DNA from: Candidatus Moraniibacteriota bacterium | GTDB lineage: Bacteria; Patescibacteriota; Minisyncoccia; Moranbacterales; UBA2206 | Assembly (NCBI GenBank): GCA_003483065.1 | Contig: DMWY01000018.1 | Location: 8,160 to 72,159, forward strand | Length of the DNA stretch: 64,000 nucleotides | Direction: 5' to 3' | In this document: in pieces, positions 2,991 to 63,620 of the stretch | How the letters are laid out: every line of letters begins with the position of its first letter | Numbering within the stretch: position 1 is the stretch's first letter | The notes under the pieces: model-generated | Databases searched by the model: none | Told to the model about the DNA's origin: nothing | What the model saw: the letters and a program-made list of their open reading frames with translations, nothing else | Position numbers and translations under genes: made by a program

Positions 2991-3187
2991 ACGGCGACGA
3001 TAAAAATTGAAGTTTACGAACGTTAAGAATTTACTCATTCTGTGCCTAAAGGGAGTTAGTAAATTTAGTGAGTAAACTGAAAATTTTTCGTCGTAGGAGC
3101 TCGGCTGAGAGTTCTTTTTGTTACTTTTTCTTGCGGAAAGAAAAAGTAAGGCTAAGTTTTTTAGAAAAAGAAAAATGGCGAGGAGCC
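2991..3187 (+). repeat. Structured intergenic repeat family R200, copy 1 (divergent left arm)
   Basis: Shares the conserved core cgttaagaatttactcat...ttagtaaatttag and the second hairpin ttgttactttttcttgcggaaagaaaaagtaag...ggcgaggag with the copies at 27377 and 37232. Its outer arms (cgacgataaaaattgaagttt / aaactgaaaatttttcgtcg) differ in sequence but remain complementary to each other. Confidence 0.7.
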
Positions 3188-3921
3188 TAATTCGTTATCC
3201 ACCTCACCGCTTCTCGCACAATAATTTTCAAATTATTCAAATTATTCAAATTCTTTTTTTCCAATTTTATCTTGCCAAGATTTTCCATTTTATTTTCCAG
3301 CACAATCCGAATGAATTTCACCCCTTCATCATTTATTCTGATTTTTTTTGTCTCTTGTTTGGCACAGTTTGAACAAATTATTCCGCCCCTCTCCGCACTG
3401 AAATAATTTTCTCCAGAAATTAGTTTGCCGGCGCAAACAGCACATTTTTTGGCCTCTTGTTTGTAGCCTAAATTTTGCAATAATTTAAAGATAAAACCAA
3501 GAGTATAAATATCAAATTTCAAAATATCCTTTTCGGCTTTGCCAGCCTCATCATTCATCATCAATAGATATTCCAATAAAAGTTGGAAAGTTTTTTCATC
3601 CTTTTCTTCCTGCGTCATCAAACGATTGAAAATTTTCATCACACCAAAAACTTTCTCCAGTGCAAAAATATTTTCTTTGATTGCCAAAAAATTTTCCATC
3701 GGGATTACGCCCGTGATATTACCTCTCCCCTTGCCCTTAGCCAAAAAAATTTCACACTGCGTTATAGATTCCAAATTGCCCGCCAATTTTGCATTGGGCT
3801 TTTTGACCCCAATTGCCCGCGCCAAAATCCGCCCGGCTTCTCGAGTGTAAACCACATAAACACGGTCAGTTTCGCCCGTGTCAATCTTATTTAGCACAAT
3901 CGCATTATATTTATATTCCAT
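3187..3921 (-). CDS. recO: DNA repair protein RecO
   Basis: N-terminal OB-fold region (MEYKYNAIVLNKIDTGETDRVYVVYTRE) and C-terminal zinc finger (CAVCAGK...GIICSNC). The ORF track starts 4 codons upstream at an ATG that lies inside the TIR of the adjacent MITE-like repeat. The MEYK start fits RecO N-termini better. Confidence 0.8.
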   Translation of the reverse strand: MEYKYNAIVLNKIDTGETDRVYVVYTREAGRILARAIGVKKPNAKLAGNLESITQCEIFLAKGKGRGNITGVIPMENFLAIKENIFALEKVFGVMKIFNRLMTQEEKDEKTFQLLLEYLLMMNDEAGKAEKDILKFDIYTLGFIFKLLQNLGYKQEAKKCAVCAGKLISGENYFSAERGGIICSNCAKQETKKIRINDEGVKFIRIVLENKMENLGKIKLEKKNLNNLNNLKIIVREAVRWITN

Positions 3922-3927
3922 ATTCCT

Positions 3928-4006
3928 TGTCATCCTGAACTTGTTTCAGGATCTCTAATATTAGCTACATCAGGTGCTGAAACCCGCCGGCCAGCGAGGT
4001 AAATTC
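3928..4006. repeat. MITE-like palindromic element, TGTCAT...ATGACA family 2, copy 1
   Basis: tgtcatcctgaacttgtttcaggatct...gctgaaacccgccggccagcgaggtaaattcagtatgaca. It has 12-bp imperfect terminal inverted repeats. A GC-rich mini-palindrome sits in the second hairpin loop. The copy at 29231 has the same outer sequence. Confidence 0.7.
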
Positions 4007-4059
4007 AGTATGACACGTTTTATCATAAGCTTCTATATCCCTATTCTACTATCTTTCCC

Positions 4060-4130
4060 TAAAAACAAAAAGGCGCCCGTCGCAATGAATCTGCAACGAG
4101 ACGCCTCTTCTGAATTTTTCAGAAAACGGG
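4060..4130 (-). terminator. Putative rho-independent terminator after receiver-like gene
   Basis: Minus strand reads aggcgtctcgttgcagattcattgcgacgggcgcct followed by ttttgttttt. Confidence 0.4.
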
Positions 4131-4135
4131 ATTTT

Positions 4136-4492
4136 TTAAAGTAGCCTCCTAACTACTTCGGTGATTTCCCTTCCTCCAGCCGGCTTTGCCAAAAAAGCAT
4201 TAACACAAAAAATCATTGCCAGATTTTGCGCATTAACACTTCCGGAGTAAACAAAAATATTTGTTTGGGGTGATTTTCTCTGACAAAATCTTATAATATC
4301 TACTCCGCCTTTTTTGATTCCAACAATAATCAGGTCAGGCTTATAACTGATTATTCTTTGTCTCTGCTCGTCTCGATCATCTGAGACGATAATCTCACCC
4401 GCAAAACCAGCCGAAAGAATTTGTCTTCTGATTAAATCATTTGTGGCACTGTCTAAATATGCCACTAAAATTATCCCCGACTTTTCTTCCAT
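4136..4492 (-). CDS. Degenerate receiver (CheY-like) domain protein lacking the phospho-acceptor Asp
   Basis: 118 aa with the receiver fold pattern (..ILVAYLDS..PDLIIVGIKK..FLAKP) but Gly where the phosphorylatable Asp is expected. AGGGAG RBS. Confidence 0.5.
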   Translation of the reverse strand: MEEKSGIILVAYLDSATNDLIRRQILSAGFAGEIIVSDDRDEQRQRIISYKPDLIIVGIKKGGVDIIRFCQRKSPQTNIFVYSGSVNAQNLAMIFCVNAFLAKPAGGREITEVVRRLL

Positions 4493-4504
4493 TCTTTTTT
4501 CTCC

Positions 4505-4873
4505 CTATAGGGTTAAAATTAGATTTTCCACTGCTTCCCTGATAACTTCCAATGGAAACGGTTTCAATAAAAACACATCGTATCCAATGGAAAAATCTTC
4601 TTCTTTTTCTGAACCAGACATATAAATAACACCCATCTCCGACATAATCTCTTTTGCTTTTTTTATCAACCTTGCCCCATTCATTTCGGGCATTTGGCTA
4701 TCCGAAATCAGAAGATCGATTTTTTTGTCTTCCAATTTCATATTTTTTATGAAGTCTAAAGCAAAAAGTGGAAATGAGAAATCAAAAACTTCATATCCCA
4801 ATTCTCCTAGATATAAGGAGAGCGTAGTTAAAATTAAATCACTATCATCAACCACGACTATTGTTTTGACCAT
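4505..4873 (-). CDS. Stand-alone response regulator receiver domain protein
   Basis: VVVDDSD...LLISDSQMPEMNG...LLKPF gives the canonical DD / D / K receiver residues. Strong AAGGAGGGG RBS before MVKT. The ORF track has a longer alternative-start extension. Confidence 0.7.
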   Translation of the reverse strand: MVKTIVVVDDSDLILTTLSLYLGELGYEVFDFSFPLFALDFIKNMKLEDKKIDLLISDSQMPEMNGARLIKKAKEIMSEMGVIYMSGSEKEEDFSIGYDVFLLKPFPLEVIREAVENLILTL

Positions 4874-5033
4874 ATCTCCCCTCCTTATATATTCAAGAAA
4901 GTATTTATTCAATTTTTAAGATTAACTAAAAGCCTACCGTTTTAGGCTTCCCCACATTCAAGCATATTTTGAATTTTTAGTCAAACAAAAACCCCGTTTT
5001 GGCGGAGTTTTTGTCTTATTTGAGCCTAAATTG

Positions 5034-8000
5034 CTATTTAATTTCTGCTCTTTGAGTAGCTTTTTTCCTAGTAAAATAGAAAATAGCATATAGCACCACA
5101 CCTCCAATTATCGCTGTCCAAGGAAGCCATTTGTAAAGTCGACATACTTCATAGAAGTACCAGACAAACAAAATCACAGCCAATTCTATCACTTGAGACA
5201 CCCAAGGCAAATTCTTTCCTTCTTTGAACTTGTTGAAAGTAGAAAAACTAAATATTCCTGCATATGCGAGTAGCATTAGAATCCAAACCCACAAAGGCCA
5301 TTCTTTGCAATTCTTTTCCGCCCCAGCCACTTCTGGATTAGATTGAACGCCCTCGACTTGTCCACCCTGATTATTCTCTTCATTCGGAGTCGGTTGTGTT
5401 TCTTGCCCACCTCCCGTTGTCGCTGGAAGTGTTCCTCCTGTTACGATAGCCACATTTTCGTCTTCATCGCTTCCATTATCTTCATTTCGAGAATAATCAT
5501 TATCGTATTTGCATATAACATTTGAACCGGAAGCTAAATTGATAGTGACTTTCTTTTTACTTTTCACAAAAGTTGCTAAGTTCGTTGAATCACTACAACG
5601 AATTTTGTCAAAAGACCAGTGGTCACTATTCAAGGATCCTTCTGTGACTGAATATGTGCCAGGGACCAAAAATTCACTTGTCCATGCATCATCCTGCCCC
5701 AACTTAAATGTGCCAGCGAAACTTGAGGAGAAAGGAAACTTTCTGCTGGTGTCATGATCAACTCTCTTAATGATTGTGATTTTTCCTAATTGCTGATTGC
5801 CGAAATTATATTCCGGTCCACTCACATAATTTTGCGATTCCTGGAATTCATAAGAATTTCCATCAGGAAGATTTATCGTGTAGCAATTCGATTCACTCGG
5901 GAAAGTTTGTCTCCAACCATCTTTTTGCGTCTCACAAACCTTGTATTCTCCTGGCAATAATTTTTCAAACCAATACCAACCAAAATGTTGATCGCTACCA
6001 TCCGTATTCATTGTTTTCATTGGCTCACTGTTATATCCCTCTCCATTTGACTGATAGAGATTAATAGTCCAGCCAGAAAGCAAGGACTCTGTTTCATCTT
6101 TTACCCCATCTCCATCCGCATCGCTCCATTTATATCCATGAATTGTGCTTAGTTTGGTATTGGTAATAGTACATTCTTTGGTTTCACCAGCTTCCACACT
6201 CACATCTGCGCAAGTATTCTCGGTCTGTTGCCAATTATTTGGAAGATTCTTTTCTAAAACAGAATATGTTCCCGGTGTCACTTCATAATCTGCTGATTTG
6301 GCAGTTAAAATCGATTGATTTGAATCAGAAATAACAGTGCCTTTTTCAGTACTAATAGAAGTATCAAAAGATGTTTCGTCATTAGCTGGATTGGTTATCT
6401 TATTAACAATCAAATGTCCGTTTCTATTATTAGTAATTGTACAAACAATATCTTCGTCCTTATTCACTGTGATTCCAGAAAGACTTGTCCCAGCTCCTGA
6501 AGCTATAATTTCATCACCATTTTTACATTCAATTGAAGATGAGTAATCTGAAAGATCAGTTGGTATCCAAACAAGATGATGGTTTATCCATTCAAAATGA
6601 CCCGCGGCGGTTTCTGAAACACTATGCGTTCCAGTTTTCACTGTTTTTTTCCAAGTTGAATCACCATCACTTGCAAGCAATCTTTCAATGTCTCCGTCAA
6701 TTTTCAAATTAAATCTGCCTTCGTCATCAGATGGATTGAGATTTTTCACAACCTTGATCGTTCCAGTGTTTCTGGTGTTTTGAATTGTGCAAGTGACGTC
6801 CTCATCCTCTCCAACATTGATTCCAGAAAGACTTGTTCCTTGTCCTGAAGAAACTTCCACTGTTTCATAATGACAATGACCATAGTGGCAATAGTCAATT
6901 TCTTGACGAGTGCATCTTATCGAAGATGTATAATCTGCCAAATCTGTTGCGCCATAACCTTCTTCCGAAACGCTATGTGCTCCAGTTATCACTGTTTGTG
7001 TTCCTGTTGTGCCATTGTCGCCTTTATTAGTTCCTTTGACAGTTTCATCAATCAGCAAATTAAATCGTCCCGAATCAAAACTCAAATTTGAATGTAAATC
7101 TTTGACAACTTTTATAGTTCCCGTTGCCAATTCAACTTTAATATTAAATGATTTATTTGAAGTATTCCCAGCAGAATCACTCGCACTGCAAGTTACTACA
7201 GTTGTTCCGATTGGAAAAATTGAACCGGATACTGGAATACAATTCACTTCAATATCTCCATCCACTGCATCATTTGCTGTTGGATTTACATATGTGACAA
7301 TCTTTCCACTAGGATCAGTGGTTTTGGTGTTTATATTTGCAGGCATTCCGGAAATAACTGGAGGAGTTGTGTCTTGAACTGTCACAGTGAATGAACCGCT
7401 GGCTATATTTCCCGCCGTGTCAGTCGCACTACAAGCAACAGTGGTTGTTCCAATTGGAAAAGTTGAACCGGAAACTGGGTTGCAAGTCACGACAGGATGA
7501 GCAGGATTAGCATCATCAGCAATAGCAACAAAAGAAACCATAGCTCCGCTTGAATTTGTCGCTTCAGTGGTAATATTGGCTGGTAAATTTAGAGTCGGAG
7601 AAGTTGTGTCAGAATAATCATAAGCAATTTTTATTTGCACATTATCAACATAAGCTGTTTGATGACCAACAGGAGATCTTCTAACAGATAAAACGACACC
7701 AAAATCAGCATCATTCACTTGCTCTGGTGTCCAAGTTGTTCCCCATAGATTAGTTTCTCCTCCGTAGATTGCAACAGCATCCGTTGCTGGCCAATATTCA
7801 CCACGAAAATAATTAGATCCCACCACTGCTCCAGTATTGTCTACAAGCCTAACTAAATGATCTTGAACTGCGTTTGAAGAAGAAGCTTTTCGCTCTATTG
7901 AAACTTGGATTCCCGTGATAGTTGCTCCGGCTGGTACAGAAAAACCAAAATCAGAAACCTTGAGATAGTTGGAAACATGCCCAGAGCTTGTAAGATTGGC

Positions 8001-10969: not shown

Positions 10970-13900
10970 TTAAATTTTCCTAACCCCAATTTCCAATTTT
11001 TCTCCATCTACCTCAAAAGTTTTTTTGAGATCTCCGGATATTTCATTGGAAGACAATATGCCATTCGCCAAAGTTTCTTTGGCGATTAATTTCTTGAGAT
11101 CTATATTGTTAAAGATCAATGATTCACCACTATAAACTATTTCAATTCGATTGTCAACTTCATAGCCCGCCTCTTTTCTCATTTCTTGAATGAAACGAAT
11201 CACCTCTCGTGCTTGGCCTTCGAGTTTGAGTTCGAGGGTGATTTCGGTATTTAATTTTATATTTTCAACACTAGAACTAGATTGCGCATCATCCATTTTA
11301 AATTCCCCAACAAACTTAACTTCCTTAATATTTAATTCTTCTTTTATTATATCTAAAAATTCCGCTCGTAATTCGCAATTGGTAATTAGTAATTCAGATA
11401 GAGGCTGACGAACTTTTATCCCCGCTTTTGCTCGCAGTTGCAATGCTTCTGTGATAATATTTCTCGTTTCTTCCATTTCCTTATTTAATCTTTCATCAAT
11501 CAATTTTTCATCAGCGATTGGAAAATCTTGCAAGTGTACAGACGCAAAATTTTGCGTCTCTACGGCGCTGGATAAATTCCGATAAATTTCCTCAGAGATA
11601 AACGGCGTAAACGGCGCCATCAATTTTGAAAGGGTTATTAAAACATAATGCAAGGTTTCATAGGCCTCATTTTTATCACCATCATTTTCCGATTTCCAAA
11701 ATCGCTTTCGACTTCGACGAATATACCAATTGGAAAGGTTATCCACAAAAACTTCAATTGATTTTGCAGAACTATAAACATCATACGCCTCTAATTTTTC
11801 ATCTACATTTTTGATAAGCATTTGCATTTCAGAAATAATCCACTTATCAAGAAGATTTTTTGTATCTTGTATCTTGTATCTTGTATCTTGCGGTTGAAAA
11901 CCGTCTATATTTGCATACATCACAAAAAATGAATATGAATTCCAAAGCATGCGAAAAACTCGATTCATAATATCTTTCATATTTTTGATATCAAATTTTT
12001 TCGGAAGTCCTGGTTGATTGATGGTATAGAGCATCCAGCGAAGCATATCTGCTCCATATTCATCCATAACCTTCATTGGTTCAATGACATTGCCTTTTGA
12101 CTTAGACATTTTTTTGCCTTTAGCATCCAAAATATGCCCGAGACAAATAACATTTTTGAAAGCATAGCCGGTTGGAACTTTTCCGGATTCGTTGAGTAAT
12201 GTAGCAATTGCGTGCAGAGTGTAGAACCACCCACGAGTTTGATCCACTGCTTCGGAAATATAATCAGCCGGAAAAAACTTTCCACTTTCAACTTTTTCTT
12301 TTTCTTCCATGCTAGCTGAAGCAGGATAATAGAATTGAGCTAACGGCATCGAGCCTGAATCAAACCAAACGTCCAAAACTTCTGGCACTTTTTTCATTTC
12401 TTCTCCGCAGACACATTCAAATTTAACTTCGTCTATATATGGTTTGTGTAAATCCTCAATTTTTTGACCAGATAAATCTTCCAGTTCTTTTTGCGATTCA
12501 ATAACTTTCAATTCTCCACATTTTTCACATTTCCAAATTGGCAAAGGAGTTCCCCAATAACGTTCTCGGGAGATTGCCCAGTCTTTGACACCCTTCAACC
12601 ATTCACCAAAACGACCCTCTCTGAAATGCTCCGGAATCCAATTTATCTTCTCATTATTTTTTACTAATTTTTCTGAAAATTCACTCATTCGGATAAACCA
12701 TGATGGCTTGGCATAATAAATCAAAGGGGTATCGCATCTCCAACAAAATGGATAATCATGTTCATACAATTCTTCTTTGAAAAGCAACTCGCGCTTTTTC
12801 AAGTCCTCTAGAATTAATTCATCGACTGCATATTTGTTTTTTTCATTTTTCTTTTTAACTGGAATTCCAAATCCAGGAACTTCCGCTGACATTTTTCCTT
12901 CCGTGTCCACGGTAATCAGAGTTGGTAAGTCATTTTCGCGTCCAACATTACTATCATCCTCTCCAAAGGCCGGGGCGATATGCACTATTCCCGTTCCATC
13001 TTGTGTCGTCACAAAATCACCCGAGACAACTCGGTAAGCTTTTTTGTCAGAATCATTAGTTTTATAAAGCGGTTCGTATTCAAGGCCGATTAAGTCATTA
13101 CCACTCATATCATCATGCACTATTTCCATTTCTTTGTCTTTGAATATTTTTTCAATCAAATCGCTAGCGACGATAATCAATTCTGAAATATCTTTTATCC
13201 GAAGCGACGTATATTTTACATTTTTGTTAACCGCTAATGCAACATTGCCTGGGAGTGTCCAAGGTGTAGTCGTCCAAACTAAAATGTAAGCGCTGTCCTT
13301 AGTTTTATATTTACCTCCTCCGAATTCTTGTTCTGGCTTTAATTTAAATTTAACAAAAACTGAATTGTCTTTCACGACCTGATAACCCTGCGCCACTTCA
13401 TGAGAAGAAAGTGCTGTTCCACAACGATAACAATATGGCACAACTTTGTGACCTTGATAAATCAAGCTTTCTCCATTCTTATTTTTAGTTTTGAAAATTT
13501 GCGCAATCACCCACCAAACTGATTCGATATATTTATTTTCATATGTGACATAAGGTTTTTTCATATCCACCCAATATGCCATTCTTTGCGTGAGTTTTTC
13601 CCAAAGATCTCGATAGAGCCAAACTGATTCTTTGCATTTCTTGTTAAATTCAATGACACTTTCTCTCGGATTTCCCGGTATAATATTTTCAATTTCTTGT
13701 TTGTTTTTTAGTCCCAATGCTTTTTCCACTTGCAATTCAACTGGCAAACCATGTGTATCCCAACCAGCTTTTCTTTCCACTCGATAGCCTTTCATTGTTT
13801 TGTAGCGCGGAATGATATCTTTGAACGCTCGCGCTAAAACATGATGAAGCCCAGGAACACCATTGGCCGTCGGTGGCCCTTCATAAAACACAAAAGATTT

Positions 13901-14014
13901 ATCCTCCGGATTTTTCTCTACTGACTTTTGAAATATCTCATTCTCTTCCCAAAATTTCAAAATTTCTTCTTCCATCTTAGGAAATGATTGCTTCACCTCA
14001 ACTTTTTTAAACAT
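10970..14014 (-). CDS. ileS: Isoleucine--tRNA ligase (type 2, eukaryote-like)
   Basis: HIGH-class motifs (PPTANGVPGLHH) and KMSKSKGN. N-terminus MFKKVEVKQSFPKMEEEILKFW is typical of type-2 IleRS. The ORF track extends 12 codons upstream from a TTG. Contains an in-frame (caagata)x4 heptamer array at 11861..11888. Confidence 0.9.
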   Translation of the reverse strand: MFKKVEVKQSFPKMEEEILKFWEENEIFQKSVEKNPEDKSFVFYEGPPTANGVPGLHHVLARAFKDIIPRYKTMKGYRVERKAGWDTHGLPVELQVEKALGLKNKQEIENIIPGNPRESVIEFNKKCKESVWLYRDLWEKLTQRMAYWVDMKKPYVTYENKYIESVWWVIAQIFKTKNKNGESLIYQGHKVVPYCYRCGTALSSHEVAQGYQVVKDNSVFVKFKLKPEQEFGGGKYKTKDSAYILVWTTTPWTLPGNVALAVNKNVKYTSLRIKDISELIIVASDLIEKIFKDKEMEIVHDDMSGNDLIGLEYEPLYKTNDSDKKAYRVVSGDFVTTQDGTGIVHIAPAFGEDDSNVGRENDLPTLITVDTEGKMSAEVPGFGIPVKKKNEKNKYAVDELILEDLKKRELLFKEELYEHDYPFCWRCDTPLIYYAKPSWFIRMSEFSEKLVKNNEKINWIPEHFREGRFGEWLKGVKDWAISRERYWGTPLPIWKCEKCGELKVIESQKELEDLSGQKIEDLHKPYIDEVKFECVCGEEMKKVPEVLDVWFDSGSMPLAQFYYPASASMEEKEKVESGKFFPADYISEAVDQTRGWFYTLHAIATLLNESGKVPTGYAFKNVICLGHILDAKGKKMSKSKGNVIEPMKVMDEYGADMLRWMLYTINQPGLPKKFDIKNMKDIMNRVFRMLWNSYSFFVMYANIDGFQPQDTRYKIQDTKNLLDKWIISEMQMLIKNVDEKLEAYDVYSSAKSIEVFVDNLSNWYIRRSRKRFWKSENDGDKNEAYETLHYVLITLSKLMAPFTPFISEEIYRNLSSAVETQNFASVHLQDFPIADEKLIDERLNKEMEETRNIITEALQLRAKAGIKVRQPLSELLITNCELRAEFLDIIKEELNIKEVKFVGEFKMDDAQSSSSVENIKLNTEITLELKLEGQAREVIRFIQEMRKEAGYEVDNRIEIVYSGESLIFNNIDLKKLIAKETLANGILSSNEISGDLKKTFEVDGEKLEIGVRKI

Positions 14015-14055
14015 AAATTTATAAATTAAAAATAAAAAAACCTTACACAAAAAAA

Positions 14056-14235
14056 TGCATAAGGACGTTTGAAAAACGTGGTACCACCTTAGTTTTCATG
14101 TTTCATGCTACATGTTGCATGCTTCATGACTTATTCCTGCTATCACGGGCTTACCCGGTGAAGTCTACTTCTCACCGATGAGGCGAGTTTCTTTTCACAG
14201 CTCCGGAGTGATCTCTCCATCAAAGCCTTTCTTCT
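14056..14235 (-). promoter_or_regulatory. T-box riboswitch leader (Ile specifier candidate) with terminator, upstream of ileS
   Basis: Minus strand carries AACTAAGGTGGTACCACG, matching the T-box consensus AAUUAGGGUGGNACCGCG. It is followed by the helix AAGG...ACGTTTTTCAAACGT...CCTT and TTTTTTT. Upstream is a stem with loop TCATC (ATC Ile codon) and GA-rich Stem-I-like sequence (GGAGAGATCACTCCGGAGCTGTGAAAAGAAACTCGCC). Confidence 0.65.
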
Positions 14236-16078: not shown

Positions 16079-17710
16079 TCACATCTTTTCTGGAGAATTT
16101 ACTCCTAACAATCTGAGAACTTCTCCTAACACTATTCTAACAGCATTTATGAGGTTTAGTCTAGCGCTAGTTAGCTCTGGATTTTCATCATCTAGCACCT
16201 TGCAATCATTGTAAAAAGAATGAAATTTATCCGCCAATTTTATCGCATAATACGGCAATTTATGCACTTCATAACTTTCGGAAACATCCTCAATGATTTG
16301 CGGAAATTTGTCGAGTTCTCGAATTAAACTCAATTCTTTTTTATGAGTTAGTAATGACAAATCTACCTTATTCCTCCTCTCCTCTTGGGAGAGGATGTCC
16401 CGACAAAGTCGGGACAGGAGAGGGCTCTCTTTCACCTTCTCTAAGATACTACAAATTCTAGCGTGCGCATATTGCACATAGAAGACTGGATTTTTTTCAG
16501 ATCTTTCTTTTGCCAAACCAAGATCGAAAGTCATATGAGTGTTAGCATCATACATCAAAAAGAAAAATCGCACGGCGTCCAAACCAACTTCATCTATCAG
16601 CTCATCAATATATACAACATTCCCAGCACGCTTGCTCATTTTTGCTTCTTTGCCATCTTTCACAAGACGCACCAATTGCACAATCACAAACTTGAGTTCT
16701 CCCTTGAACCCAAGGGCTTCGGCTGCTGCGCGAAATCTCAAAATATAGCCATGATGATCAGCGCCCCAAACTTCAATTATTTTTTCAAATTTTCTGTCTA
16801 TTTTATTCAAGATATATCCACAATCCGAGGCAAAATATGTTTTTTGTCCGTCTTTTTTAACAAGCACTCGATCTTTGTCATCGCCAAATTTTGTCGTCTT
16901 AAGCCACATCGCTCCATCATTTTCAAAAGTTAATTCTTTCTTTTTCAATTTTTCAATCGCCTTATCAATATAGCCATCTTCATAAAGAGATTTTTCTGAC
17001 ATCCAGCTATCAAAATTAATTTTCATCTTTTCTTTGATTGTTTTTTTGATAATCTCATCCAGCACAATCTTGGCCGACTTTTCTCCAATTTCTTTGATAT
17101 CTTTTATTTTTGCAAATTTTTTATTCAATTGATCAATATATTCCCCGGAATATGCCGCCTCCTCATCCTTCAAAACACTGTGACCTAATTTGAGCAATTG
17201 CTCTCCAGCATCATTCACATAATATTCATTAACATTTTCATAACCCGCCTTTTCCAAAACTTTTCCAATCACATCTCCGAAAAATCCTCCTCGACCATTG
17301 CCCAGATGAAGCGGTCCAGTCGGGTTGGCAGAAATAAATTCATTGTTAACTTTTTTTCCTTTTCCAGTTTTGCCTTCGCCAAACTTATTTTCTCTTTCAT
17401 TTATCTCTCGAACTTTGTCCTGCAAATATTCTTTAGACAAATAGAAATTTATATACCCCGGTACAACAACTTCCACTTTCTCAAAAAATTGCTGTACGGA
17501 CAGGTCGCGACCTGTCCCTACCAAAAAATTTTTAATCTCCTCAGCTACTGTTATCGGATTTTTCTTGGCACTCTTACTCAAAACCATCGCCACATTAGTC
17601 GTATAATCACCAAAAGCTTCAAGCTTCGGATAGTCAACATCAACCTCACCTATTTCATAACCGAGGTCTTTCACCGCTTTTTCTATAAGTTTTTGAATTT
17701 CTTGTTTCAT
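16079..17710 (-). CDS. argS: Arginine--tRNA ligase
   Basis: N-terminal Arg-tRNA-binding domain, HIGH motif (PTGPLHLGNGRG), and C-terminal DALR anticodon-binding region. Carries the in-frame palindromic insertion at 16373..16424. Confidence 0.9.
   Translation of the reverse strand: MKQEIQKLIEKAVKDLGYEIGEVDVDYPKLEAFGDYTTNVAMVLSKSAKKNPITVAEEIKNFLVGTGRDLSVQQFFEKVEVVVPGYINFYLSKEYLQDKVREINERENKFGEGKTGKGKKVNNEFISANPTGPLHLGNGRGGFFGDVIGKVLEKAGYENVNEYYVNDAGEQLLKLGHSVLKDEEAAYSGEYIDQLNKKFAKIKDIKEIGEKSAKIVLDEIIKKTIKEKMKINFDSWMSEKSLYEDGYIDKAIEKLKKKELTFENDGAMWLKTTKFGDDKDRVLVKKDGQKTYFASDCGYILNKIDRKFEKIIEVWGADHHGYILRFRAAAEALGFKGELKFVIVQLVRLVKDGKEAKMSKRAGNVVYIDELIDEVGLDAVRFFFLMYDANTHMTFDLGLAKERSEKNPVFYVQYAHARICSILEKVKESPLLSRLCRDILSQEERRNKVDLSLLTHKKELSLIRELDKFPQIIEDVSESYEVHKLPYYAIKLADKFHSFYNDCKVLDDENPELTSARLNLINAVRIVLGEVLRLLGVNSPEKM
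16373..16424 (+). repeat. In-frame palindromic insertion element (PIE) copy A, inside argS
   Basis: cctcctctcctcttgggagagg atgtcccgacaaagtcgggacag gagaggg. Arms cctctcc/ggagagg plus an internal hairpin gtcccgac/gtcgggac. Encodes PLLSRLCRDILSQEERR within ArgRS with no stop. Confidence 0.75.
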
Positions 17711-35456: not shown

Positions 35457-37217
35457 ATGTCAAACAAAAAAACCACTCCTAACGATTTAGACATCCTTCG
35501 CCACTCAGCATCACACGTAATGGCATCAGCAGTCCTCGAAATGTTTCCAGAAGCCAAGTTTGCTATTGGCCCCTCCATTGAAAACGGCTTTTATTATGAC
35601 TTTGAGCTTCCACGAACTCTCATTCCAGAAGACTTGGAAATTCTTGAAGAAAAAATGCGAGCCATCATCAAGGCCAATCACCCTTTTGAACGTGCAGAGA
35701 TTTCTTTTGCAGATGCGCTAAAAGATTTCAAAAAAGCTAACCAACCCTACAAAGTTGAGCTTATCAAAGATCTTGAAAAATCCCAAGAAACTAATAAGCC
35801 ACTAAACCAATTAACTATTTACAAATCCGGAGTTTTTGTCGACCTCTGCAGTGGCCCACATCTTGAATCAACCGGAGAAATTCCAGCTGACGCCTTCAAG
35901 CTCACCAAAATCTCCGGTGCTTATTGGCGAGGTGATGAAAAAAATAAAATGCTTCAAAGAATTTATGGTGTGGCTTTTGGAAGCAAAAATGATTTGAAAG
36001 AATATTTGCATATGATTGAAGAAGCGGAAAAAAGAAACCATGTTAAATTAGGAAAGGAACTCCGATTATTTTCTACTCACATTGAAGGACCGGGTTTTCC
36101 ATTTTTTCATCCAAAGGGAATGATAGTTTGGAATGAGCTTATCAAGTATTGGAAAGAAGAACATACAAAAGAGAATTACCAAGAAATAAGCACGCCAATT
36201 ATTCTCAATCGAACTCTTTGGGAAAAAAGTGGCCACTGGGATCACTACAAAGATAATATGTATTTTACCAAAATTGATGAAACTGATTATGCGGTGAAAC
36301 CTATGAATTGCCCAGGAGGAATTTTAGTTTACAAATCCGATATGCATAGCTACAAAGAATTACCTCTTAAGTTAGCGGAGATTGGCCTCGTCCATCGACA
36401 TGAACTCTCCGGAACCTTAAATGGACTTTTTCGAGTGCGTATGTTTCGACAAGACGATGCTCACATCTATTGCATGGAGAATCAAATCAAGGATGAGATA
36501 ATTAAACTGACAAAAATGATTGAACGAATTTATAAAACTTTTGGATTGTCATATCATATGGAACTATCCACTCGACCAGAAAATTCAACCGGTACGGACA
36601 AGATATGGGAACAAGCTGAAAATGCCCTGAAGGATGCTTTGAATGAAATGAAAGTTGATTATAAACTAAATCCGGGAGATGGAGCTTTTTACGGACCAAA
36701 AATAGATTTTCATATTAAAGACGCTATTGGCAGAACTTGGCAATGCGGAACAATTCAGCTTGATTTTTCAATGCCGGAAAGATTCGATTTGACCTATATC
36801 GGCGAAGATGGCAAAGAACATCGACCCGTAATGCTTCATCGGGTTATTTATGGCGCAGTAGAGCGCTTCATGGGAATTCTTATTGAACACTATGCCGGTG
36901 CCTTCCCTCTTTGGCTCTCCCCTGTGCAAGTAGCAATTTTGCCAGTCAGTGAAAAGTTTGAAAAATATGCCAAAGATGTAGAGACGCAATTTATTGCCTC
37001 TGGTATTCGTGTGGAATTATATAACCAATCCGAGTCACTCGGCAAAAGAATTCGCGAAGCCGAAAAGCAAAAAATTCCATATATGCTCGTAGTCGGAGAA
37101 AAAGAAGAAGCCGACAACTCTGTAGCTGTGCGCTCCCGAGGAACGAAAGATCAAGAAGTTATGAAAGTAGAAAATTTTGTTGAAAAAATTATCGCAGAAA
37201 TTAAGGAGAAGAAATAA
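35457..37217 (+). CDS. thrS: Threonine--tRNA ligase (short form lacking N-terminal TGS domain)
   Basis: Editing/second-addition domain HSASHVMA, class II core (RVRMFRQDDAHIYC, GPKIDF), C-terminal anticodon-binding domain. Confidence 0.9.
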   Translation: MSNKKTTPNDLDILRHSASHVMASAVLEMFPEAKFAIGPSIENGFYYDFELPRTLIPEDLEILEEKMRAIIKANHPFERAEISFADALKDFKKANQPYKVELIKDLEKSQETNKPLNQLTIYKSGVFVDLCSGPHLESTGEIPADAFKLTKISGAYWRGDEKNKMLQRIYGVAFGSKNDLKEYLHMIEEAEKRNHVKLGKELRLFSTHIEGPGFPFFHPKGMIVWNELIKYWKEEHTKENYQEISTPIILNRTLWEKSGHWDHYKDNMYFTKIDETDYAVKPMNCPGGILVYKSDMHSYKELPLKLAEIGLVHRHELSGTLNGLFRVRMFRQDDAHIYCMENQIKDEIIKLTKMIERIYKTFGLSYHMELSTRPENSTGTDKIWEQAENALKDALNEMKVDYKLNPGDGAFYGPKIDFHIKDAIGRTWQCGTIQLDFSMPERFDLTYIGEDGKEHRPVMLHRVIYGAVERFMGILIEHYAGAFPLWLSPVQVAILPVSEKFEKYAKDVETQFIASGIRVELYNQSESLGKRIREAEKQKIPYMLVVGEKEEADNSVAVRSRGTKDQEVMKVENFVEKIIAEIKEKK

Positions 37218-44533: not shown

Positions 44534-46009
44534 TTATTCTCCTGACATTTTTTTTACTAATAATTCAGACGCAGCATTTGGATTAGCCTTTCCTTTAGTA
44601 GCCGACATAGTTTGCCCGATCAGAAACTTCAACGCATTTTCTTTCCCAGCCTTGAAATCAACCACCGATTTCTCATTCTTGGCCAAAACTTCCTCGACTA
44701 TTTTTTCCAATTCGTCTGAATTATCCATTTGCGCCAAATTTTTTTCTTCGATGATTTGCGATGGATCGCCACCTGCCTTGTACATCTCGGCAAGCACTGT
44801 TTGCGCTGCACTGGAATTTATTTTCCCCTCTGACAAAATACAAATAAACTCGGCGTAATTTTCTGGAGTGATTTTGATATCAGATAAATCATGTTCGTGT
44901 TCCCCCATGTGCTTGCGAAGTTCACCAATCATATAATTAGCAGCCAATTTAATCGCCCTTTCTTCTTGGCACACATATTCTTTGCAACTAATTTTTTCCC
45001 TAATTTCGCTCACCACATTTTCAAAATACTGCGCCAATTCTTTTTCGCAGGTTATAATTTCCACGTCAGCAATTGGCAGATCATATTCCTTTTTGAATCT
45101 TTCAAATTTTTGCTCCGGCAGTTCTGGCAATTTTCTTTTAATATTTTCCACATAAGTTTCATCAAAACTAAACGGCGGGATATCCGGTTCAGGAAAATAG
45201 CGATAATCATGCGCTGATTCTTTTTTCCTCTGTGAAACTGTCTCACCTTTGTTCGCATCCCATCCGCGAGTTTCTTGAACAATCTTTTCACCTTTATCCA
45301 ACATTTCCGTTTGTCGCTCAATTTCAAAATTGATGGCTTTTTCCACGAATTTAAAACTATTAATATTCTTCACTTCAACTTTAGTGCCAGAAAGTTTTTC
45401 CTCGCCTTCTTTATAAAGTGAAATATTAGCTTCGCAACGCATATTTCCTTTTTCCATATCCGCATCTGATATTTCAAGATATCTGCAAATCTGTTGCAGT
45501 TTTTGACAAAAAATTCGCGCTTCTTCACCCGTTTCAATGTCCGGTTCAGTCACCAGCTCCATTAGTGGCACTCCAGCGCGATTGAAATCCACCAGAGTAT
45601 ATTCCACGCCTTTTGGGTGAATGAGCTTGCCTGTGTCCTCTTCGAGATGAATGCGAGTGATTCCGATTTCTTTCCCATTTATTTTCAATTTTCCTTTTTC
45701 ACAAAATGGTTGATCATATTGGGAAATTTGATAGCCTTTTGGAATATCCGGATAAAAATAGTTCTTACGATCAAACTTTGAAATTTGACGCAAATTGCAA
45801 CCCAACGCCAAGCCAACTAACTGAACAAATTCAATTGCTTGAATGTTTGGCACCGGCAATGTTCCTGGTTGCGCTGTGCAAACAGGACAAATATCAATAT
45901 TTGGAGTCTTTTCAAGCCCCAAGCCATTCTTGCATTGGCAAAACATTTTTGATTTAGTTTTGAGTTCCACATGGATTTCCATGCCGATTACGGGAGTGTA
46001 TTTTTTCAT
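44534..46009 (-). CDS. gatB: Asp-tRNA(Asn)/Glu-tRNA(Gln) amidotransferase subunit B
   Basis: MKKYTPVIGMEIHVELKTKSKMFCQC N-terminus, GatB/YqeY C-terminal domain. Confidence 0.9.
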   Translation of the reverse strand: MKKYTPVIGMEIHVELKTKSKMFCQCKNGLGLEKTPNIDICPVCTAQPGTLPVPNIQAIEFVQLVGLALGCNLRQISKFDRKNYFYPDIPKGYQISQYDQPFCEKGKLKINGKEIGITRIHLEEDTGKLIHPKGVEYTLVDFNRAGVPLMELVTEPDIETGEEARIFCQKLQQICRYLEISDADMEKGNMRCEANISLYKEGEEKLSGTKVEVKNINSFKFVEKAINFEIERQTEMLDKGEKIVQETRGWDANKGETVSQRKKESAHDYRYFPEPDIPPFSFDETYVENIKRKLPELPEQKFERFKKEYDLPIADVEIITCEKELAQYFENVVSEIREKISCKEYVCQEERAIKLAANYMIGELRKHMGEHEHDLSDIKITPENYAEFICILSEGKINSSAAQTVLAEMYKAGGDPSQIIEEKNLAQMDNSDELEKIVEEVLAKNEKSVVDFKAGKENALKFLIGQTMSATKGKANPNAASELLVKKMSGE

Positions 46010-57032: not shown

Positions 57033-57059
57033 AAAAATGATGCAAAATTTGGTGGGCGA

Positions 57060-57136
57060 TTCAAGATTCGAACTTGAGACCTCGTCATTATCAGTGACGC
57101 GCTCTAACCAACTGAGCTAATCGCCCGAAATATTTT
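57060..57136 (-). tRNA. tRNA-Ile (anticodon GAU), CCA encoded
   Basis: Reverse complement GGGCGATTAGCTCAGTTGGTTAGAGCGCGTCACTGATAATGACGAGGTCTCAAGTTCGAATCTTGAATCGCCCACCA folds as a cloverleaf with anticodon loop CTGATAA. Confidence 0.9.
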
Positions 57137-62360: not shown

Positions 62361-63620
62361 TCAATGCACTGCACAACTTATACAAGGATCATAGGCTCGA
62401 ATAAAAGCCCGCAATTTTCGTTCGCGTGCCTTGCCTTTTAATTTTATGATTCCTGGAATATACCCAGCAATATCTTCTTCTAAATTAGACAAAACTTGCG
62501 CCGTCGGTGTAATTATGTTCACATTTCTAATATACCCCTTAGCATCAATTTCTGTGTGATAATAGAGAGTGCCTCTTGGAGCTTCCACGGCCGCTGCCCC
62601 CGAGCCCTCTCTAATTTCATACGGCCTCGTGAGAACTTTTTCCAAATCTGAATTTAAAATTTGTTTGATAAGATGCGAGGATTCTTCGATGGCATGAATT
62701 ACTTCCACCATTTGACATAGGATATTGTTGAAAGGATTATAATTAGGAAATTTCAATTCTAAACTACCAAGATATTTATGCGCCTCTGGTCGCAATTTTT
62801 TTCGGTTCAAGTTGATTCTAGCAATTGCTCCTACCATATAACTTTTTCCGTCATGTTCCACTCTTTTTATAATCTCTCTTTGTTTTTGCAATTCGTGAAA
62901 ATTATTCTCAAAACTACCCACGGGAATGTTGAGTCCCTGATTGGAAATAATATCTCCGTCATAAACTGCATACTTAGCCGGCGCTGACAAGCAAACGTAT
63001 TCTGTTTCTCGAGAAAATTCCGGCAGTTTTATTTTTCTGAAAAAATTTCCTAGCATAGACGCATCTTGCAAAATTTCACTAGAAGAAAAAACTAATTTTC
63101 TGAATTCTTCGCTATCCGGTATTCTTTTGAATCCGCCGACTTCATTGGTAAGTGGATGAATTACTCGTCCGCCAATCACTCTCACAATCTCCATTCCATA
63201 TTCGCGAATTCGCATGGCTATTTTTGTCTCCTTGGGATATTTTTCCACTAATTTTAAATCATTATCCATATCCAAAAAATCCGCTAGCGACAAAAAGAAA
63301 AGGTGCAGTGCATGCGAATGGATAATTTGTCCCAGCTCCATAATTTCACGAAGTTTTTTTGTTTCTTCACTCACGATTATTCCAAAAGCATTTTCAATAG
63401 ATTTTATAGCCGTTATATTATGTACTACCGGACAAATTCCACAAATTCTTTGTGCCACTACGGGCATATCGCTAAAGTGTCGACCAATCAAAACACCTTC
63501 GATAAGACGAATTCCTTCTTGAATTTCTAATTTAGAAGACTTAACATCCCCCTGAAGAACACTCGCCATAAATCCGGCGTGTCCTTCCATTTTTGCAATG
63601 TGATTAATTTTAATTTGCAT
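62361..63620 (-). CDS. [NiFe]-hydrogenase large subunit (small cytosolic group-3-like)
   Basis: N-terminal RICGICPVVH (RxCGxCxxxH) and C-terminal DPCISCAVH (DPCxxCxxH) Ni-Fe ligand motifs. 419 aa. Confidence 0.85.
   Translation of the reverse strand: MQIKINHIAKMEGHAGFMASVLQGDVKSSKLEIQEGIRLIEGVLIGRHFSDMPVVAQRICGICPVVHNITAIKSIENAFGIIVSEETKKLREIMELGQIIHSHALHLFFLSLADFLDMDNDLKLVEKYPKETKIAMRIREYGMEIVRVIGGRVIHPLTNEVGGFKRIPDSEEFRKLVFSSSEILQDASMLGNFFRKIKLPEFSRETEYVCLSAPAKYAVYDGDIISNQGLNIPVGSFENNFHELQKQREIIKRVEHDGKSYMVGAIARINLNRKKLRPEAHKYLGSLELKFPNYNPFNNILCQMVEVIHAIEESSHLIKQILNSDLEKVLTRPYEIREGSGAAAVEAPRGTLYYHTEIDAKGYIRNVNIITPTAQVLSNLEEDIAGYIPGIIKLKGKARERKLRAFIRAYDPCISCAVH

Follow-up and report, generated by a model that had tools for sequence, protein, structure and literature searches.

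The ileS gene in the stretch of DNA considered here (64,000 nucleotides of contig DMWY01000018.1 from a Candidatus Moraniibacteriota bacterium, below called the window) is preceded by a candidate tRNA-sensing T-box. Judging by its sequence, it is a stripped-down form of the element, lacking the platform that contacts the tRNA elbow and ending in a terminator of transcription. It is probable that this T-box, built on an ultrashort Stem I, senses tRNA-Ile and attenuates the transcription of ileS. The same ultrashort design is common to 11 genome loci of the candidate phyla radiation (CPR) and dozens of low-GC metagenome loci. The original prediction, made from the letters of the window, was a T-box leader before ileS outside the Firmicutes; in its favour are the Rfam match, the covariation, a cognate tRNA-Ile(GAU) in the window and ten further CPR loci. 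What it overlooked was the main point, the combination of an ultrashort Stem I with an intrinsic terminator. The features, all on the minus strand, are as follows.

14028..14232: the whole ileS leader, beginning with the base of Stem I and ending with the terminator U-tract (RF00230 match and terminator scan).
14200..14227: ultrashort Stem I with a kink-turn (K-turn) at its base (Rfam alignment, covariation, minimum free energy fold).
14210..14212: candidate Specifier AUC (Ile), followed by the conserved purine A14209 (loop codon across leaders, tRNA-Ile(GAU)).
14158..14198: Stem II with an S-turn (covariation, register of the N. farcinica structure).
14139..14157: Stem IIA/B element CGGGUAAGCCCGUGAUAGC with the F-box-like CCGUGA inside (invariant in Parcubacteria-type leaders).
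14096..14129: Stem III (Rfam alignment, minimum free energy fold).
14061..14090: antiterminator (Rfam alignment, posterior '*' throughout).
14028..14064: intrinsic terminator (hairpin 14041..14064) and U-tract (terminator scan).
10970..14014: ileS, encoding isoleucyl-tRNA synthetase (IleRS) of 1014 amino acids, with the ATG at 14014 (TIGR00392, 963 bits against a cutoff of 621).
57050..57126: tRNA-Ile(GAU), the predicted ligand (ARAGORN; Rfam tRNA model, 73.7 bits).

The minus strand carries, at 14077-14094, the T-box string AACTAAGGTGGTACCACG with a UGGU bulge for pairing with the tRNA acceptor end, named in the original prediction. The 14-nt core AAGGTGGTACCACG is present at a single place in the window, with 0.06 occurrences expected from shuffles; a second listed match is the palindromic GGTACC on the opposite strand and not a separate site. 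Under permissive filters the Rfam model RF00230 matches positions 14058-14232 of the minus strand over all 219 model positions with 59.9 bits (E=1.3e-12 in a 501-nt stretch, E=1.6e-10 over the whole window). The scan of the window at gathering thresholds yields two tRNAs and no T-box. The Rfam match is significant but lies below the gathering score of 93, so that the original prediction only narrowly escapes its own refuting condition. The score is low because 74 consecutive positions of distal Stem I are replaced by 4 nt, and not because of the core. The range first proposed for the leader, 14056-14235, ends too early to include the terminator's 3' arm and U-tract. No other T-box was found in the 64-kb window by the permissive RF00230 scan. 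In particular, argS (16079-17710, minus strand), thrS (35457-37217, plus strand) and gatB (44534-46009, minus strand) have no T-box upstream at E<=0.1, so the suggestion to look before other aminoacyl-tRNA synthetase genes, followed up within the window, gave nothing for argS and thrS.

The core GGTGGTACC was found upstream of ileS and on the same strand in ten further CPR-labelled or IleRS-related loci (L001, L002, L003, L004, L009, L035, L044, L072, L069, and L036 from Peregrinibacteria), and also upstream of ileS in two Clostridia loci (L013, L021). Every CPR leader, 11 including that of the window, has a short Stem I, a 5-bp hairpin, with an NNAUC(A/G) apical loop, for example AAAUCA, CCAUCA, UUAUCG, CUAUCA, UAAUCA or UGAUCA. 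The Clostridia leaders have a full-length Stem I with an internal specifier loop. The Rfam scores of the 11 CPR leaders are between 31.6 and 62.7 bits, none of them at 93, whereas the Clostridia controls score 127 and 143. A hairpin with a T-run equivalent to the terminator of the window is present in all ten other CPR loci. Four leaders (L002, L004, L035, L072) have an additional hairpin inserted 3' of Stem I, ahead of the closing stem. The idea that it might stand in for the elbow platform was considered and set aside, as its sequence is not conserved and often consists of a tandem repeat.

In seven further loci of Patescibacteria (L005-L008, L034, L066, L074) no T-box is found at E<0.1, and thus the ileS T-box is patchy among Patescibacteria. 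A marginal model match in L066 (Saccharibacteria, E=0.12) was unconfirmed by Rfam and was dropped. Some labels of metagenome-assembled genomes look doubtful. L002 (CAYOTC010000019.1) is labelled 'uncultured Bdellovibrionales', yet its IleRS is 69% identical to that of the window and its leader is of the CPR type; L043 and L073, under Gammaproteobacteria labels, are nevertheless the best matches of low-GC IleRS genes with ultrashort leaders.

Stem I of the window leader reads GC-UUU-GA-UGGAG-[AGAUCA]-CUCCG-GA-GC (5' to 3', 14226-14200). At its base G14226-C14225 pair with G14201-C14200 in the C-stem, followed by the bulge UUU (14222-14224) and the tandem GA of the K-turn (14221-14220 and 14203-14202). 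Above it the 5-bp helix of UGGAG (14219-14215) with CUCCG (14208-14204) presents the apical loop AGAUCA (14214-14209). The minimum free energy fold reproduces this hairpin. Stem II consists of a lower helix GUGAA/UUCAC, an internal loop with the 5' strand AAGAAA (14193-14188) and the 3' strand AAGUAGAC (14170-14163), an upper helix CUCGCC/GGUGAG and an apical loop UCAUC (14181-14177). The IIA/B element downstream is invariant in ten Parcubacteria-type CPR leaders. Stem III lies between the purine string AAG-U (14130-14133) on its 5' side and AAA on its 3' side.

The hairpin with the UCAUC loop, in which the AUC had been taken for the Specifier, does exist (stem 14171-14187, loop 14177-14181), but it is the apex of Stem II. 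Its loop is not the Specifier, since it is not conserved: it is GAAA in L001, AU in L044, UUUUU in L069 and UUAUU elsewhere.

Stem III of the window is a tandem repeat CATGnnn of period 7 in five copies (minus strand, 14094-14128; Tandem Repeats Finder score 42), which folds as a stem because CAUG is self-complementary. In the relatives, Stem III and the extra hairpin by Stem I are built from (CATGGAA)x3 with (CTCTATG)x3, and from (TAATTACG)x3. Such tandem-repeat hairpins are seen at about 2720-2810 in L072, at about 2740-2780 and 2850-2920 in L035, and in Stem III of L003 and L004. Hairpins at permissive sites of this candidate riboswitch thus seem to grow by tandem duplication.

The 3' part of the leader contains two mutually exclusive structures. 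The antiterminator is AAGG-[UGGUACC]-ACGUUU-UUC-AAACGU-CCUU, where helix A1 is formed by AAGG (14090-14087) and CCUU (14064-14061), the 7-nt T-box bulge is UGGUACC (14086-14080), and helix A2 is formed by ACGUUU (14079-14074) and AAACGU (14070-14065). A2 covaries among loci, being, for example, GCCCA/UGGGU in L036 and ACGC/GCGU in L004. The terminator is a hairpin of CCUUAUGCA (14064-14056) and UGUGUAAGG (14049-14041) with a U6 loop, and the U-tract UUUUUUUAUUUUU (14040-14028, U7AU5) follows. The 5' arm of the terminator reuses CCUU, the 3' strand of A1, and hence the two helices cannot coexist. The terminator scan detects the site, with 0.2 sites expected in shuffles. The terminator has an energy of -7.9 kcal/mol alone and -10.7 kcal/mol with A2 retained; that of the antiterminator is -4.2 kcal/mol. 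A terminator more stable than the antiterminator is the usual energy balance of T-boxes. Competing folds had been expected at this place, and a competing pair was indeed found, but the name of terminator had been given to the wrong hairpin: the AAGG-[UGGUACC]...CCUU hairpin earlier read as the terminator exists at 14061-14090 and is the antiterminator, and the U7 earlier read as its tail (14049-14055) lies in the loop of the real terminator (14041-14064).

Between the terminator U-tract and the ileS ATG the sequence is pure A/U. There is no Shine-Dalgarno (SD) box within 25 nt of the ATG, the 26 nt before it being only A and U; the sole SD-like AAGG, in the 3' arm of the terminator, is 26 nt away.

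The closest relatives of the window IleRS (Pfam domains tRNA-synt_1, Anticodon_1 and DUF5915) are from metagenome-assembled genomes of Candidatus Moranbacteria and other Parcubacteria/Patescibacteria, with 66-93% amino acid identity among one-per-species genomes. The early guess of a CPR-like lineage is thereby borne out. The G+C content of the window is 35-38%, and that of the genome is given as 33-37%. The tRNA-Ile(GAU) gene encodes the CCA and ends in ...AUCGCCC-A-CCA, with A73 as the discriminator. Its anticodon GAU is complementary to the leader codon AUC, and A73-C-C-A is complementary to UGGU.

The conservation of the helices was assessed with a covariance model, R1, built for the decoding domain from six CPR leaders (93 positions, 22 pairs). 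This domain was modelled alone, because full-length MAFFT alignment failed 3' of IIA/B, where Stem III, A2 and the terminator have variable inserts. R1 mis-threaded L004 and L035 through the inserted hairpin, and their Stem I was read by eye. In the ten confident genome matches 93% of the cells pair, against 27-48% in slid controls, and 14 pairs are changed on both sides, against 3-6 in the controls. A wider set came from metagenomes, scanned with a codon-independent signature of the decoding domain, AAGAAA...TAGA-N7-GGGNANGCCCGTNANAGC, which matched at least 120 loci. R1 aligned 88 leaders, 82 of them distinct. Here 95.3% of the cells pair (21-49% when slid), and the covariation score is 0.617, against at most 0.11 in the controls and with none of 500 shuffles as high. 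Changes on both sides occur in 5/5 pairs of Stem I, 5/5 pairs of lower Stem II and 6/6 pairs of upper Stem II, each with 4-6 pair types. The IIA/B columns are invariant in the CPR set and fixed by the metagenome pattern, so that they give no covariation signal on the pseudoknot pairs.

When compared by tblastn with the named loci, the metagenome loci have Patescibacteria-labelled best matches at just 45-64% identity. This is indecisive, since the IleRS of the window shares 50% identity with one from Clostridiaceae as well. The CPR assignment therefore rests on the 11 genome loci and not on the metagenome loci.

Variant T-box cores among the ultrashort leaders include AGAUGGUACC and GUUGGCACC. 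The sub-class of ileS leaders with the core AGAUGGUACC, which has no GG before UGG (L094, L100, L103, L110, L119, L130, L137, L146, L156, L160), has an odd geometry of the terminator region, with weak hairpins but U7-U8 tracts. Helix A1 and the switching in this sub-class may differ from the standard scheme. The same scan returned at least 45 metagenome loci (for example L087, L121, L135, L153, L176) with GC-richer leaders and a canonical long Stem I. They have a GAA-N-GUC-G specifier (Val) and strong terminators, and lie upstream of valS-like open reading frames (ORFs) with N-termini like 'LPKxYDF...'. Thus the Stem II and IIA/B module appears near-identical in sequence across very different architectures of Stem I.

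The triplet in the apical loop of Stem I tracks the downstream gene. Of 58 clean ultrashort leaders, 48 have AUC as this triplet, 5 have GAC and 4-5 have AAC, each time with a purine next to it. AUC leaders with a readable downstream gene always precede ileS, or an ORF and then ileS. GAC and AAC leaders precede aspS in 7/7 checked cases, all above the NCBIfam cutoffs; five of these genes encode non-discriminating Asp-tRNA(Asn) ligases and two encode bacterial-type AspRS. The apical loop of Stem I is the Specifier, because its triplet switches with the downstream gene. The T-box bulge is UGGC in 5/9 Asp/Asn leaders and UGGU in nearly all Ile leaders. The window leader conforms on both counts: AUC-A (14212-14209) stands before ileS with the purine next to the codon, and the bulge UGGU faces A73-CCA of tRNA-Ile(GAU).

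The ultrashort leaders with GAC or AAC are L124, L133, L138, L148, L149, L158, L165, L171, L183 and L091. Most of the Asp/Asn leaders have strong terminators (-11 to -28 kcal/mol); L148 is SD-sequestering in appearance. Some aspS genes appear, from the codon in the loop, to be tuned to the charging of tRNA-Asn.

The expression platform was compared between low-GC and high-GC leaders. In 42 of the 45 unique low-GC (<0.55) ultrashort leaders with a complete 3' part there is a hairpin directly followed by T4-T8. The hairpin is at -5 kcal/mol or below in 38 of these 42, and at -8 kcal/mol or below in 28 (median -9.0), whereas shuffles reach these levels in 13/165 and 2/165 cases. None of the five high-GC (>=0.60, actinobacterial-type) leaders has a hairpin with a T-run. 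Instead, they have CCUC...GGAG beside the AUG, with GGAG 6-7 nt before it. In the subclass of the window the 5' arm of the terminator always reuses the CCUU strand of the antiterminator. The distance from the terminator to the start codon is usually at least 19 nt and up to hundreds of nucleotides.

In L009/L145, L044/L098 and L003 the leader is separated from ileS by an unrelated ORF. Transcriptional control is compatible with this arrangement and masking of the SD box of ileS is not, because a whole ORF intervenes in L009, L044 and L003. The inserted ORFs are a deoxyribosyltransferase-like ORF of 137 amino acids in L009 (2560-2973), a CMAS-type methyltransferase of 419 amino acids in L044 (1718-2977) and an ORF of 190 amino acids with no assignment in L003 (2327-2899). 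Genes inserted in this way would come under the control of tRNA-Ile. The sequence data as a whole favour transcription attenuation over SD masking. The decoding module is evidently used with both platforms, since the low-GC aspS leader L148 looks translational.

The proposed mechanism is as follows. The nascent leader would fold into the 5-bp hairpin based on the K-turn, showing AUC-A in the apical loop. Stem II would then dock alongside, and the S-turn purines G-A-A and G-U-A-G-A would clamp the duplex of the codon with the anticodon of tRNA-Ile(GAU), with the IIA/B element as the geometric hub. The distal platform of Stem I being absent, the tRNA elbow would stay uncontacted. If the tRNA is uncharged, A73-C-C-A would pair with UGGU and steady the weak antiterminator (14061-14090), allowing RNA polymerase to enter ileS. 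If the tRNA is charged or absent, CCUU would pair with UGUGUAAGG, forming the terminator (14041-14064), and transcription would end within the U-tract (14028-14040), some 15-25 nt short of the ATG. That the tRNA binds, how the leader docks and that regulation acts on termination are inferences, the geometry of docking being taken from the actinobacterial crystal structures.

Several observations weigh against control of ileS by attenuation on an ultrashort Stem I. The RF00230 match, at 59.9 bits, is under the Rfam gathering score. The decoding domain shows no unusual folding energy (z=-0.8), and the conclusions lean on covariation rather than on folding stability. The covariation alignments, in turn, were fitted to the model, and the metagenome pattern fixes IIA and parts of the S-turn, so that those columns are uninformative. 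A scan found no consensus sigma-70 promoter between the stop codon of the upstream NUDIX hydrolase gene (14270) and Stem I; TTGTGT-N16-TAGTAT (14265-14238), seen by eye only, is a weak promoter candidate. T-runs are common at 33-37% GC, although the shuffled controls speak against chance. Termination and tRNA dependence of the leader are themselves predictions. Finally, transcriptional T-boxes are said to need the elbow-binding platform for fast capture of the tRNA (PMC7583486), and an ultrashort transcriptional T-box would need some kinetic compensation. The long variable inserts in Stem III and A2, which would lengthen the decision window, or pausing of the polymerase are possibilities.

One alternative is a translational T-box like the actinobacterial ones, where the hairpin hides the ribosome-binding site (AAGG in its 3' arm) and the U-tract is incidental. 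All published T-boxes with an ultrashort Stem I are described as translational (PMC7583486, PMC11297988, PMC12990946, TBDB class II), and the aspS leader L148, although low-GC, has AAAGGUG 7 nt before the AUG and no T-run; the 3' arm of the downstream hairpin is also necessarily SD-like, being the complement of CCUU. However, in the window the AAGG of this arm is too distant from the ATG for an SD box, with nothing purine-rich nearer and with the T7AT5 tract directly after the hairpin. Together with the distribution of hairpins with T-runs (42/45 low-GC leaders against 0/5 high-GC ones, and far fewer in shuffles), the usual spacing of at least 19 nt and the ORFs intervening in L009, L044 and L003, this makes translational control of the window ileS improbable. 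A decaying or non-functional remnant, or a chance likeness in a reduced CPR genome, is less probable still. The score below the gathering threshold, the lack of the element before ileS in the close relatives L005-L008, L034 and L074, the unrelated genes inserted beside the element and a Stem III that is a simple tandem repeat would all fit such a history. On the other hand, the match has E=1.6e-10, every variable helix has compensatory changes among 82 sequences, and AUC-A, the S-turn purines, the F-box and UGGUACC are invariant. Moreover, the codon in the loop varies with the gene, a matching tRNA is encoded in the window, and the energy balance of terminator and antiterminator is kept.

The anatomy of the original prediction is that of a canonical T-box, with AUC in the UCAUC loop as the Specifier and the hairpin with the UGGUACC bulge, followed by U7, as the terminator. 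Both hairpins exist where stated, and the closest relative L009 also has AUC in the loop of Stem II (GUAUC). However, Rfam and the structural alignment put UCAUC at the apex of Stem II, between the strands of the S-turn, and in CPR leaders this loop varies, while the loop of Stem I always contains AUC, replaced by GAC or AAC before aspS. A UGGN bulge defines the antiterminator in every T-box, and the U7 starts 5 nt past the base of the hairpin, in the loop of the real terminator. There is hardly any chance left for this version, which the comparative data have already refuted. Attenuation of ileS transcription by a T-box with an ultrashort Stem I remains the preferred reading.

Upstream of the leader are the NUDIX hydrolase gene and a gene of a GT4 glycosyltransferase. 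The GT4 gene is constant upstream across the relatives; in the window the NUDIX gene lies between it and the T-box instead. The IleRS lengths vary from 1014 amino acids in the window to 1188 in L009 (gene at 2995-6561), 1259 in L044 (2995-6774), 1164 in L035 and 1311 in L128, and L186 also belongs to the set with length variation. Outside the extra length the L009 protein is 93% identical to that of the window. Such differences imply that some IleRS genes of CPR contain large in-frame insertions. That gatB is present agrees with the indirect pathway of Asn/Gln-tRNA formation, which is typical of CPR. At 62361-63620 on the minus strand, an ORF of 419 amino acids resembles the large (alpha) subunit of an NAD(P)-dependent [NiFe] sulfhydrogenase/hydrogenase. 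Its score of about 241 bits is well under the equivalog cutoffs. The ORF points to a group 3 hydrogenase in this genome.

To our knowledge, little is known about gene regulation in CPR organisms. A full-text literature search found no report of a T-box in the candidate phyla radiation or Patescibacteria, and the literature pairing 'riboswitch' with CPR describes no natural riboswitches there. No prior report of an ultrashort T-box with a terminator was found either, although an earlier mention in some uninspected literature is possible. The leader of the window would bring the CPR into the range of T-box regulation. Its ileS would be tuned to the charging of tRNA-Ile in a genome where few regulators are recognisable, whereas argS and thrS of the window would not.

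Reviews tie an ultrashort Stem I to translational control and a long Stem I to transcriptional control (PMC7583486; repeated in PMC11297988 and PMC12990946). The leaders described here break this correlation, which underlies the kinetic argument about tRNA capture before RNA polymerase passes; that argument is now directly testable. There is also an annotation gap, and the result is of use for CPR annotation and of interest to riboswitch specialists. All 11 CPR leaders are under the Rfam gathering score, and TBDB, which describes leaders with a truncated Stem I as 'class II, putative translational', searched for them in Actinobacteria only, yet at least 120 metagenome loci match the signature of the decoding domain.

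Tentatively, and with rather more doubt than confidence, one may suppose that CPR, and probably other uncultivated low-GC lineages, harbour a large class of T-boxes, as yet unannotated, in which the decision falls during transcription and no contact with the elbow is made. This would contradict the rule that terminator-type T-boxes need a long Stem I platform for fast tRNA capture. The minimal decoding module (apical codon, S-turn, IIA/B) would then be a portable core, serving both terminators and SD-sequestrators, with codons for Ile, Asp or Asn. On the same supposition, it might stand nearer to the ancestral T-box than the form found in Firmicutes does.

The known systems nearest to the window leader are the actinobacterial ultrashort ileS T-boxes of M. 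tuberculosis, M. smegmatis and N. farcinica (PDB 6UFG, 6UFM; TBDB 'class II'). Both have a K-turn under a short Stem I, AUC-A in the apical loop and no distal platform for binding the elbow; both have, in sequence, IIA/B with the F-box, the purine string of Stem III and the UGGU bulge; and in both ileS is the regulated gene, for the window by prediction, with no other T-box nearby. With the first G of the basal GGC (14227) taken as position 1, A16-U17-C18-A19 and G37-A38-A39 of the window RNA have the same numbers as in the N. farcinica ileS structure, and the 3' strand G-U-A-G-A corresponds to G67-U68-A69-G70-A71 (PMC7583486). The F-box is CCGUGA in the window and CCGUCA in N. farcinica. In the actinobacterial class the S-turn purines of Stem II and an IIA/B pseudoknot make up for the lost elbow contact; the window has the corresponding sequence motifs at the crystal-structure register, with covarying Stem II helices and invariant pseudoknot columns. 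The model R1, built from CPR sequences alone, scores the high-GC actinobacterial-type leaders at 59-70 bits. By this alignment the decoding module of the window matches the actinobacterial 'anticodon pincer' almost residue for residue, and by analogy the window RNA would dock and bind tRNA as the actinobacterial T-boxes do. The differences lie in the expression platform, which is an intrinsic terminator with a U-tract in the window and an SD-sequestering helix in Actinobacteria, and in the host, a CPR bacterium (Moranbacteria) with 33-37% GC. Unlike the actinobacterial leaders, the CPR ones carry tandem-repeat hairpins in Stem III and at sites beside Stem I.

With the canonical T-boxes of Firmicutes (RF00230; tyrS and ileS of B. 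subtilis; the Clostridia loci L013 and L021 for comparison) the window leader shares the K-turn, Stem II with the S-turn, IIA/B, Stem III, the AUC-A specifier for ileS, the UGGN T-box, the competition of antiterminator and terminator, and the U-tract. The logic proposed for the window is also the same, uncharged tRNA leading to readthrough. However, Stem I of about 90 nt is reduced to a 5-bp hairpin, the Specifier is in the apical and not in an internal loop, and the parts that stack on the tRNA elbow, the AG bulge and the distal loop, are missing, corresponding to the 74 deleted model positions. In terms of the T-box classes, the window leader has the intrinsic terminator of class I as the OFF state, but neither the long Stem I with the interdigitated T-loop platform of that class nor the SD-masking sequestrator of class II. 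The minimal T-boxes of the glyQS type are also reduced architectures acting through a terminator. However, glyQS keeps the long Stem I with the elbow platform and loses Stem II and IIA/B (PMC7583486), whereas the window leader shows the reverse.

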